From Escherichia coli (GTDB taxonomy: Bacteria > Pseudomonadota > Gammaproteobacteria > Enterobacterales > Enterobacteriaceae), in the NCBI RefSeq assembly GCF_003334305.1, contig NZ_QOWS01000009.1: a stretch of 64,000 nucleotides of DNA. One strand, written 5' to 3'. Positions 2-4,807 of the stretch are shown piece after piece. Both the position numbers and the translations under genes were made by a program. Under the pieces are notes generated by a model. That model worked only from the letters and a program-made list of their open reading frames with translations. It was not told the DNA's origin and searched no databases. The number at the start of each line of letters is the position of its first letter. The stretch's first letter is position 1.

Positions 2-397
2 TTTTCAGGTGTAGGTAGTCTGGCGTCGCCACAGAAGTTCAGTATTAAACTTGAAAATTGCCCGGCAACGTACACTCAAGCAGCCGTTCGTTTTGATGGT
101 ACAGAAGCGCCTGGCGGCGACGGCGACCTGAAAGTGGGTACGCCGCTTACAGCAGGCAACCCTGGTGATTTTACCGGTACAGGACAAGCGATTGCGGCAA
201 CCGGCGTTGGTATTCGTATTTTTAACCAGTCCGATAATTCGCAGGTTAAACTTTATAACGACTCTGCTTATACCGCTATCGATGCTGAAGGCAAGGCTGA
301 AATGAAGTTTATTGCACGCTATGTGGCAACCAATGCGACCGTAACGGCTGGTACGGCGAACGCGGATTCACAATTTACTGTCGAATATAAGAAATAA
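2..397 (+). CDS. lpfA: Fimbrial major subunit (chaperone-usher pilin), 5' end cut by window edge
   Basis: Frame is open from window position 2 to the stop at 397; translation ...GTGQAIAATGVGIRIFNQSD...FTVEYKK has the look of a type-1-like pilin C-terminus; followed directly by chaperone, usher and adhesin genes. Symbol assigned from operon layout and position next to pstS (lpf2-type locus), not from a search. Confidence 0.75.
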   Translation, partial: FSGVGSLASPQKFSIKLENCPATYTQAAVRFDGTEAPGGDGDLKVGTPLTAGNPGDFTGTGQAIAATGVGIRIFNQSDNSQVKLYNDSAYTAIDAEGKAEMKFIARYVATNATVTAGTANADSQFTVEYKK

Positions 398-444
398 TTT
401 ATCAAGGGCCTTTTTATTCAGTTGGCTTTGGCCAGGGAGTCGTT

Positions 445-1176
445 ATGTCCAGAAAAAGTTGTTTAATCAGGCTCTTTAAAACAACAGTTTCATGTAAGTT
501 ATTTACCGCGATTATACTCAGCGTTTTTTTAGGCCAACCAGCATTAACTTATGCAGGCGTTGTCATTGGCGGTACGCGGGTGGTTTACTTAAGTAATAAT
601 GCTGATAAATCTATTTCTGTATTTAGCAAAGAAGAAAAAATACCTTATCTCATCCAGGCTTGGGTAGATCCATTTAATAAAGAGGATAAAAGCAAAGCGC
701 CGTTTACCGTTATTCCGCCAGTATCACGATTAGAACCTTCGCAAGAAAAAATATTACGCATTATTCACACCAAAGGTGTGTCATTGCCTGATGATCGCGA
801 GTCAGTCTTCTGGCTGAATATTAAAAATATTCCGCCATCAGCGAGCAACAAAGCGACGAACTCGCTGGAAATAGCAGTAAAAACGCGTATCAAGCTGTTC
901 TGGCGACCAGCAAATATCCGCCTTATTCCCGAAGATGCTGCACTGAAAGTGAAATGGCGCCGGGAAGGGCGAAATCTGATAGCAGAGAATCCCAACCCAA
1001 TTCATATCAGTGTGATGGATGTCATCGTTGATGGCCATGATGTGCCCCTCAATATGATCCGTCCTTTTGAAACGCTCACGTTACCTTTACCTGCTAATTC
1101 TGCGGGAGGCCAAATGACCTGGCGATTTATTAATGATTACGGCGCAGTCAGTGACCCGATAAAAATGACGCTGTAA
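445..1176 (+). CDS. lpfB: Periplasmic fimbrial chaperone (PapD-like)
   Basis: 243-aa ORF with N-terminal signal-like hydrophobic stretch, size and position (between pilin and usher) typical of a chaperone-usher chaperone. Confidence 0.8.
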   Translation: MSRKSCLIRLFKTTVSCKLFTAIILSVFLGQPALTYAGVVIGGTRVVYLSNNADKSISVFSKEEKIPYLIQAWVDPFNKEDKSKAPFTVIPPVSRLEPSQEKILRIIHTKGVSLPDDRESVFWLNIKNIPPSASNKATNSLEIAVKTRIKLFWRPANIRLIPEDAALKVKWRREGRNLIAENPNPIHISVMDVIVDGHDVPLNMIRPFETLTLPLPANSAGGQMTWRFINDYGAVSDPIKMTL

Positions 1177-3723: not shown

Positions 3724-3733
3724 AAGGATTTTT

Positions 3734-4807
3734 ATGAACAAGTATATCAAACAGTGGTGCTTTGCTGTGTTTATGCTCTCGTTAAGTAGTGTAGCACTTG
3801 CAGCTCCTAAAGGTATCTGTACCCCTGATAATGGCGTATTTCACAGTACGCTTGATTTCTCGGGATATCTTATTACCGCGAACGAAAATAAGGTTGGAAC
3901 GACATTTAACACCACTGTAACTAATGGATCCTCATATCCTGGACGCTGTCATTGTGATACTGGTAACGTAGGAGAATTCCCCTATATCTATTATACGTCA
4001 AAAATAAACCAGGCATTAACTTATGCTGGGGTTCACTCTAATATTAATTATTATGATCTTAATCCGAACCTTGATGTTGGGATTGCTATAGATATTCTTG
4101 GGGTTGGGTATGTGAATGCACCTTTTGAATATCATGCTAACAACCCGTCTGGTAATACAAAGTACAATTGCAACCGCATTGAACCTTTAAGTATATCTAG
4201 TGGGGCTAAAGCGATAGTATATTTTTATATCAAGAAGACATTTGCAGGAAAATTGATTATTCCTGAAACAAAGATAGTGACATTGTATGGAACAATTAGC
4301 CGTGACACCCCGGTGGATTACTCACAGCCGATGGCTGATGTTTATATTCGGGGCGATATTACAGCTCCGCAAAGTTGCGAAATAAATAATTTACAGCCAG
4401 TTTATTTTGATTTTAAAGAAATACCAGCTGCAGATTTTTCATCTGTTGTTGGAAGTGCGGTAACAACACATAAAATTACTAAAACGGTCACTATTGAGTG
4501 TGAAAACCTGGGGATACTGAATACCGATGATATCAGTACGTCTTTTTATGCTACCGAACCCAATACGGACAATTCAATGGTCGTAACTTCAAACTCTAAC
4601 GTGGGGATAAAAATTTACGACAAAAATAATAAGGAAATCAAAGTGAACGGTGGTGAGTTGCCAACAGACATGGGTAAATCAACAGTGTATGGTGAAAAAT
4701 CAGGTAGTGTAACTTTTTCAGCTGCTCCTGCGAGCCTTACTGGAGCTCGCCCAGCCCCGGGGCAATTTACTGCAACAGCGACGATAACTGTTGAGATTGT
4801 GCGCTAA
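3734..4807 (+). CDS. lpfD: Putative fimbrial tip adhesin / minor subunit
   Basis: 357-aa ORF with signal peptide (MNKYIKQWCFAVFMLSLSSVALA), starting 11 bp after the usher stop; AT-rich; last gene before the pstS promoter. Confidence 0.7.
   Translation: MNKYIKQWCFAVFMLSLSSVALAAPKGICTPDNGVFHSTLDFSGYLITANENKVGTTFNTTVTNGSSYPGRCHCDTGNVGEFPYIYYTSKINQALTYAGVHSNINYYDLNPNLDVGIAIDILGVGYVNAPFEYHANNPSGNTKYNCNRIEPLSISSGAKAIVYFYIKKTFAGKLIIPETKIVTLYGTISRDTPVDYSQPMADVYIRGDITAPQSCEINNLQPVYFDFKEIPAADFSSVVGSAVTTHKITKTVTIECENLGILNTDDISTSFYATEPNTDNSMVVTSNSNVGIKIYDKNNKEIKVNGGELPTDMGKSTVYGEKSGSVTFSAAPASLTGARPAPGQFTATATITVEIVR

Follow-up and report, generated by a model that had tools for sequence, protein, structure and literature searches.

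What is the block of fimbrial genes that stands directly upstream of pstS in this Escherichia coli genome, and how did it come to occupy a place where K-12 has none? The window, i.e. the whole stretch of DNA analysed here (64,000 nucleotides, contig NZ_QOWS01000009.1 of RefSeq assembly GCF_003334305.1), begins inside this block, which extends from position 2 to position 4807. Judged from its sequence, the block is almost certainly an LpfO113-type operon (also designated lpfB1), belonging to the Stg/Lpf2 group and seated in the slot between glmS and pstS, and it would encode a complete chaperone-usher machine for an adhesive fimbria.

Four fimbrial genes upstream of pstS

Positions 1-5200 of the window match E. 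coli strain A7 (NZ_CP028767.1) with 100% identity. RefSeq annotation of A7, produced by the Prokaryotic Genome Annotation Pipeline, reads in this region glmS, lpfA-O113, lpfB-O113, lpfC-O113, lpfD-O113, pstS. The four-gene order, the location between glmS and pstS (its glmS side being seen through A7) and the identity to proteins bearing the LpfO113 name thus all agree with the assignment. Gene content, domain architecture, locus and identity to a named operon are direct observations. The LpfO113 operon is already known and routinely annotated, and it represents an ordinary accessory adhesin locus.

All four genes lie on the + strand. The edge of the window cuts the first of them, base 2 corresponding to codon 60 of the 190-codon major pilin gene lpfA-O113. 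The 3´ part of this gene (codons 60-190 and the stop codon, 2-397) was recognized from the open frame and from identity to A7; the frame is open from base 2 to the stop codon at 395-397 and, with the stop codon counted, comprises 132 codons. Beyond the window lie codons 1-59 of lpfA, the promoter and glmS. Downstream of lpfA follow lpfB-O113 (445-1176), coding for a periplasmic PapD-like chaperone of 243 amino acids and supported by its open reading frame, Pfam and NCBIfam; lpfC-O113 (1201-3723), coding for an outer-membrane usher of 840 amino acids (open reading frame, Pfam, A7 annotation); and lpfD-O113 (3734-4807), coding for a two-domain tip adhesin of 357 amino acids (open reading frame, Pfam, AlphaFold model). 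The successive intergenic gaps are 47, 24 and 10 nt. Open reading frames of the window and the A7 locus agree on a gene content of lpfA-B-C-D, with neither lpfE nor lpfD´. Only 247 nt separate lpfD from pstS.

A previous sequence-only reading of the window had proposed the coordinates and orientation of four tightly spaced genes, all of which were confirmed by the open reading frames. It had placed the end of the operon about 140 bp before the pstS Pho boxes, and the distance from the lpfD stop codon to the first box is indeed 141 nt. The AT-richness that it ascribed to lpfD and to the spacer before pstS is equally real, GC contents of these segments being 0.395 and 0.326 (4808-4948), compared to 0.511 in the rest of the window. 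The value for lpfB is 0.425, while lpfC (0.472) and the lpfA part (0.485) are only slightly below the rest.

Domain composition of the four products corresponds to a chaperone-usher operon of the FimD-like branch, which combines a PapD-like chaperone, a three-part usher, a pilin and a two-domain tip adhesin. LpfA, for which the full sequence of 190 residues was taken from the identical A7 locus, contains the Pfam Fimbrial domain PF00419 (residues 29-189) and scores 392.7 bits with the NCBIfam model NF011817 (cutoff 203). A signal peptide ending in HALA/EDG and the pair Cys39/Cys79 can be read in its sequence. LpfB carries PapD_N (38-158) and PapD_C (181-236) and matches NF011818 over its full length with 534 bits (cutoff 317). 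In PapD, Arg8 and Lys112 hold the C-terminus of the subunit; their counterparts in the predicted mature LpfB are Arg8 in GTRVVY and Lys113 in KLFWRP. LpfC is composed of PapC_N (29-174), Usher (192-749, E 2.5e-185) and PapC_C (758-824). Upon inspection of the sequence, signal-peptide-like N-termini were present in all four proteins, together with ribosome-binding sites.

In LpfD, a signal peptide (approximately residues 1-23) precedes an N-terminal receptor-binding domain (approximately residues 24-200, nt ~3803-4333) and a C-terminal pilin domain (residues 204-354, nt 4343-4795), the Pfam Fimbrial match being confined to this C-terminal half. The AlphaFold model of the protein has a predicted local distance difference test score (pLDDT) of 88.5. 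Its best structural match is LpfD of the adherent-invasive E. coli (AIEC) strain LF82 (5AFO; E 9.5e-25, TM 0.67-0.69), followed by FimH, PapG, CfaE, CupB6 and CsuE, all of them two-domain tip adhesins. A PDB search by sequence agrees with the search by structure in pointing to 5AFO (E 6e-26). Moreover, a cluster of 2,949 members named "long polar fimbrial minor subunit LpfD-O113" has exactly the LpfD sequence of the window as its representative.

Nothing observed contradicts the identification of the block as an LpfO113 operon, although it has limits. The usher and the adhesin stay below every NCBIfam equivalog cutoff. Completeness of lpfA and the nature of the left flank are deduced from the identical A7 locus, beyond the window. 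Finally, chaperone-usher operons of E. coli are in many cases not expressed in the laboratory.

Boundaries and distribution of the operon

As the K-12 reference we used MG1655 (NC_000913.3), 76 kb of which were aligned with the window. In MG1655, pstS directly follows glmS and no fimbrial genes lie between them, just as the sequence-only reading had assumed. From 4945 to 64000 the window is collinear with MG1655 at approximately 99% identity. Since a K-12 match is missing only at 1-4944 and in a stretch of 171 bp at 62748-62918, the description of the operon as the only clear accessory block holds relative to K-12. That it is a chaperone-usher operon, accessory and already described, as the same reading maintained, follows from the A7 annotation, the absence from K-12 and the published operon. 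Another record labelled K-12 MG1655, NZ_CP032679.1, is devoid of pstSCAB-phoU and has glmS followed by bglG; evidently it comes from a deletion derivative and is unsuitable as a reference.

The borders of the variable segment are sharp. On the left, A7 shows the segment to begin with the first base behind the glmS stop codon; on the right it ends at 4944/4945, leaving 4 nt to Pho box 1. The site in K-12 is not empty: its 202 bases bear no relation to the operon-carrying segment of 5,420 bases. Between lpfD and the right border there is an AT-rich, allele-specific spacer (4808-4944), delimited by the beginning of K-12 homology at 4945 and by a multi-allele alignment. The tandem pstS Pho boxes (4949-4966 and 4971-4988 on the + strand, together 4949-4988), detected by a pattern search for which 0.15 chance matches are expected, are core sequence outside the operon and mark its boundary. 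They are invariant across alleles and genera, and in an alignment of seven alleles all sequences become alignable exactly from the first Pho box.

Two observations concern the glmS side, just outside the window. In operon-carrying strains the terminator hairpin of glmS differs from that of K-12, and divergence begins immediately behind the stop codon of glmS. Tn7 usually attaches downstream of glmS, and its attachment point consequently falls into allele-specific sequence just upstream of the region of the lpfA promoter; this matters for Tn7-based tagging of operon-carrying strains.

Prevalence of the operon was surveyed in 5,426 complete E. coli genomes, counting it as present where at least 80% of window positions 1-4900 were covered. 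It was found in 1,974 of them (~36%). An identity of at least 99% was reached in 1,478 genomes, roughly 500 carry an allele of ~88-89% identity, and O157-like genomes gave only a 120-bp match in the chaperone gene. LpfO113 is thus a well-known E. coli adhesin marker, annotated automatically and present in about one third of complete genomes, and finding it once more matters little in itself. It marks a colonization factor linked to adherence in E. coli that produce Shiga toxin (STEC), avian and extraintestinal strains. For strains of phylogroup B1, a four-gene operon named lpfB1 has been reported at a frequency of about 50%, and phylogroups D and F were described as having an 89% variant of it (PMC6033998). 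Since the LpfO113 allele was found mainly in B1 in that work, the allele of the window is consistent with a B1-like lineage.

Comparison of the two E. coli allele groups revealed that divergence is distributed unevenly. The proteins share 98% (LpfA), 96% (LpfB), 95% (LpfC) and 84% (LpfD) identical residues, and at the DNA level the greatest differences are found in the spacer and in the 5´ half of lpfD, where identity is 71-75%. Within LpfD, identity is 81% in the receptor-binding domain versus 92% in the pilin domain, and the receptor-binding domain is only ~33% identical to that of O157 LpfD´. As the most variable part, the receptor-binding domain could underlie host or tissue specificity.

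Members of the family have decayed in some lineages. IS1 interrupts lpfD-O113 in strain S56 (NZ_CP010242.1), and a truncated LpfD-O113 is known from Shigella flexneri with 1,083 member sequences. In O157, lpfB2 is split in two and lpfC1 carries an internal stop codon.

A four-gene fimbrial cassette occupies the glmS-pstS slot also in Salmonella, Enterobacter hormaechei, Pseudocitrobacter and divergent Escherichia. Altogether, seven alleles from five genera, all located in the same interval, were compared. Across the compared genomes, identity is 92-100% for the flanking GlmS and PstS proteins and 39-84% for the fimbrial proteins. The tree of fimbrial alleles conflicts with the species tree and differs from gene to gene. 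LpfA, LpfB and LpfC of the window are closest to those of Pseudocitrobacter (84, 74 and 81% identity), LpfD only shares 43% with its Pseudocitrobacter counterpart, which in turn shows 81% identity to O157 LpfD´. Such a mosaic, in which A, B and C resemble the window and the adhesin resembles O157 LpfD´, indicates that the adhesin gene is exchanged independently.

Expression, assembly and origin

A stem-loop is situated at 4814-4843 (+ strand), 7 nt after the lpfD stop codon. It was recognized as an inverted repeat with a perfect stem of 10 bp and a loop of 10 nt, has a predicted folding free energy of -14.2 kcal/mol (z -3.4), and is accompanied by covariation: an equivalent hairpin exists in all seven alleles from the five genera, with compensatory changes in 4 of the 12 pairs. 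Although its U-tract is weak, the stem-loop is probably the terminator of the operon or a 3´ hairpin stabilizing the mRNA. A simple terminator scan of 1-5300 listed no terminator fitting the operon end; the 10-nt loop falls outside the rules of the scan. In the same interval a promoter scan returned 8 promoter-like sites, compared to 11.0 in shuffled sequence. The promoter region of lpfA is located beyond the window; in A7 it is an extremely AT-rich tract of 260 bp following the glmS terminator.

Assembly, expression and an adhesive role of the fimbria are suggested by its family and by published work on the LpfO113 operon. Transcription would be initiated beyond the window, in AT-rich sequence downstream of glmS, with its probable end at the conserved hairpin at 4814-4843. 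The major pilin LpfA, LpfB, LpfC and LpfD would each be exported by means of a Sec signal peptide. In the periplasm, LpfB is expected to capture subunits of the pilin fold by donor-strand complementation, holding their C-terminus in place through Arg8 and Lys113. The outer-membrane usher LpfC would begin assembly with the two-domain adhesin LpfD and then polymerize LpfA beneath it by donor-strand exchange. The resulting fimbria would present at its tip a receptor-binding domain mediating adherence to host epithelium.

Does the operon really work in its host, and did it arrive as a mobile element? It might be intact but cryptic, i.e. silenced by H-NS, never assembled and without phenotype in the source strain, which we consider doubtful, if still worth serious attention. 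The very AT-rich region upstream of the operon in A7 would fit silencing, as would the yield of the promoter scan in the window, no higher than expected by chance, and most chaperone-usher operons are repressed by H-NS (PMC6033998). However, transcripts of the LpfO113 operon have been measured, with a 10-12 fold difference between STEC groups, and the same paper cites Doughty 2002 and Ideses 2005 for adherence phenotypes of O113:H21 and O78 strains (PMC6033998). The four frames are, moreover, intact at an identity of at least 99% in 1,478 genomes, which argues for selection. As to arrival, a recently inserted mobile genomic island would account for the low GC content of lpfB, lpfD and the spacer, for the patchy presence within E. 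coli and for the incongruence between allele and species trees. It is nevertheless an unlikely explanation. Neither integrase, tRNA, insertion sequence (IS) nor flanking direct repeats were found at the operon (A7 annotation, Rfam search of 1-5054, repeat search); the boundaries coincide exactly with the glmS stop codon and Pho box 1; K-12 holds 202 unrelated bases instead of an empty site; and the same cassette resides in the same slot in Salmonella, Enterobacter, Pseudocitrobacter and divergent Escherichia. No fimS-like invertible element was detected in the surroundings of the operon, nor upstream of lpfA in A7, no Rfam family matched within 1-5054, and no tandem repeats of note were present.

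On the most plausible reading, the operon has long resided in a fixed slot, where it was time and again either lost, K-12 being an example, or exchanged by way of its conserved flanks, with the adhesin gene behaving as a separate recombining module. Horizontal acquisition, as the sequence-only reading had put it, survives in spirit as allelic exchange or loss at a conserved slot, but island insertion is a mechanism that the observations do not favour. Modular exchange at a fixed slot across genera would illustrate neatly how surface adhesins become diverse in the absence of mobile elements.

The spacer contains one more element of potential regulatory interest. TGTCATCTTTTTGTCA (4879-4894, - strand) is an exact match to TGTCAT-N5-TGTCA, an inverted Pho-box-like core placed 55 nt upstream of Pho box 1 in allele-specific sequence. 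Exact matches to this pattern number two in the whole 64 kb, TGTCATCTTTTTGTCA and the true Pho box 1, compared to 0.07 expected. The 89% allele and Enterobacter have the site as well, with one mismatch and at the same distance from the pstS ATG; the other four operon-carrying alleles examined (O157, Salmonella, Pseudocitrobacter and divergent Escherichia) lack it. If functional, the site could link PhoB to upstream activation of pstS or, when phosphate is limiting, to an antisense transcript running into lpfD. The wider proposition, which takes the slot for an ancient fimbrial cassette polymorphic across Enterobacteriaceae, with an adhesin exchanged independently of A, B and C and a spacer site perhaps linked to PhoB, seems to us, taken together, quite unlikely.

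Elsewhere in the window, the alignment with K-12 revealed only two more differences. The 171-bp element at 62748-62918, between the tisB/istR region and emrD, is absent from MG1655. It carries GC-rich inverted arms of 27 nt, TAACCCTCTCCCCAAAGGGGCGAGGGG and CCCCTCGCCCCTTTGGGGAGAGGGCTA, and has the appearance of a small intergenic repeat of the palindromic kind. In the pstA-pstB spacer (~8022-8029), about 85 bp of K-12 sequence (3908466-3908551) are missing; this spacer measures ~90 nt in the window and A7 versus ~182 nt in K-12 and O157, a length difference that probably reflects presence or absence of a repetitive extragenic palindromic (REP)-type repeat. Rfam matches at gathering level, at 63388-63517, 33276-33356, 49007-49078 and 38833-38875, comprise istR, AsdA (antisense of dnaA), the ROSE_2 thermoregulator upstream of ibpA and the small RNA ES036, all of them expected core E. 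coli features.

Relation to known fimbrial systems

The sequence-only reading took the operon for the lpf2 type of O157 and many commensal strains. In respect of the locus family this is correct; the O157 allele, however, is a different one. Lpf2 of O157:H7 (O-island 154) shares the glmS-pstS slot, and its pilin passes the same equivalog NF011817. On the other hand, it consists of five genes, with duplicated adhesin genes (lpfD and lpfD´) and lpfB split in the record examined, whereas the window has the four genes of LpfO113. Protein identity to the window amounts to 55% (A), ~66% (B), 63% (C), 43% (D´) and 36% (D), and the DNA match found by megablast is limited to 120 bp. That the operon is the O157:H7-type lpf2 is thus highly improbable: identity and gene number refute it as the same allele, and it survives only as a member of the same locus family. 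Orthology with canonical Lpf, i.e. lpfABCDE of Salmonella Typhimurium and lpf1 of O157, might be expected from the gene names and from the closest solved structure, LpfD (5AFO), yet its probability is next to nil. The Salmonella LpfA, LpfB, LpfC and LpfD models score far below their cutoffs (91.7 versus 221, 135 versus 360, 738 versus 1271 and 136 versus 412 bits, respectively). Identities to O157 Lpf1 are a mere 37, 36, 39 and 26% for A, B, C and D; the window operon has no lpfE; and O157 lpf1 sits at a different locus, yhjX-eptB. Model scores and locus together rule this identity out. What canonical Lpf (Salmonella LpfABCDE, O157 Lpf1, AIEC LF82) does have in common with the window is the chaperone-usher architecture and the two-domain fold of LpfD; it differs in the yhjX-eptB locus, the fifth gene lpfE and an identity of 26-39%.

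The relationship to Stg is closer. Reportedly, Lymberopoulos et al. in 2006 recognized Stg of the avian pathogenic E. coli (APEC) O78 strain chi7122 and stgABCD of S. Typhi as a distinct group in the glmS-pstS region. Our comparison with Stg covers one Salmonella enterica contig and the NCBIfam models. The operon of this contig shows the order glmS, pilin, chaperone, usher, adhesin, pstS, so that the slot is shared with the window, and its proteins are 65% (A), 64% (B), 68% (C) and 44% (D) identical to those of the window. The equivalog families of pilin and chaperone are common to both; NF011817 and NF011818 are passed by proteins of the glmS-pstS operons of Salmonella and O157 as well. The adhesin departs from this pattern. 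The best NCBIfam model for LpfD of the window is StgD (NF011819), but the score of 217.9 bits is below the cutoff of 493, and the adhesins of Salmonella, O157 (D´) and the 89% variant likewise stay under this cutoff. The sequence-only reading had named a better match to Stg than to Lpf as an outcome that would speak against it. Literally, such a match exists (NF011817, NF011818, and StgD as the best adhesin model), yet this concerns naming only and refutes nothing, as LpfO113, Lpf2 and Stg belong together in a single group defined by the locus.

Type 1 fimbriae (FimA/C/D/H) rely on the same mechanism and the same set of domains. FimC, FimD, FimA and FimH models are next-best for the window proteins, and FimH is among the structural matches of LpfD. 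Unlike type 1 fimbriae, the window operon is devoid of FimF/G adaptors, a FimI-like gene, an invertible switch and recombinases at the locus, and the receptor domain of type 1 fimbriae is unrelated in sequence to that of LpfD.

Closest of all is the LpfO113 operon itself, as known from STEC O113:H21 negative for the enterocyte effacement locus (LEE). Its four genes, their order and their place between glmS and pstS all agree with the window, and no difference was detected. The operon figures as lpf in the commensal strain SE11 and the enterotoxigenic E. coli (ETEC) strain E24377A and as lpfB1 in non-O157 STEC. According to the SE11 genome paper, lpf lies between glmS and pstS, is nearly identical in E24377A and shares 83-98% with SMS-3-5, but only 34-63% with O157 (PMC2608844).

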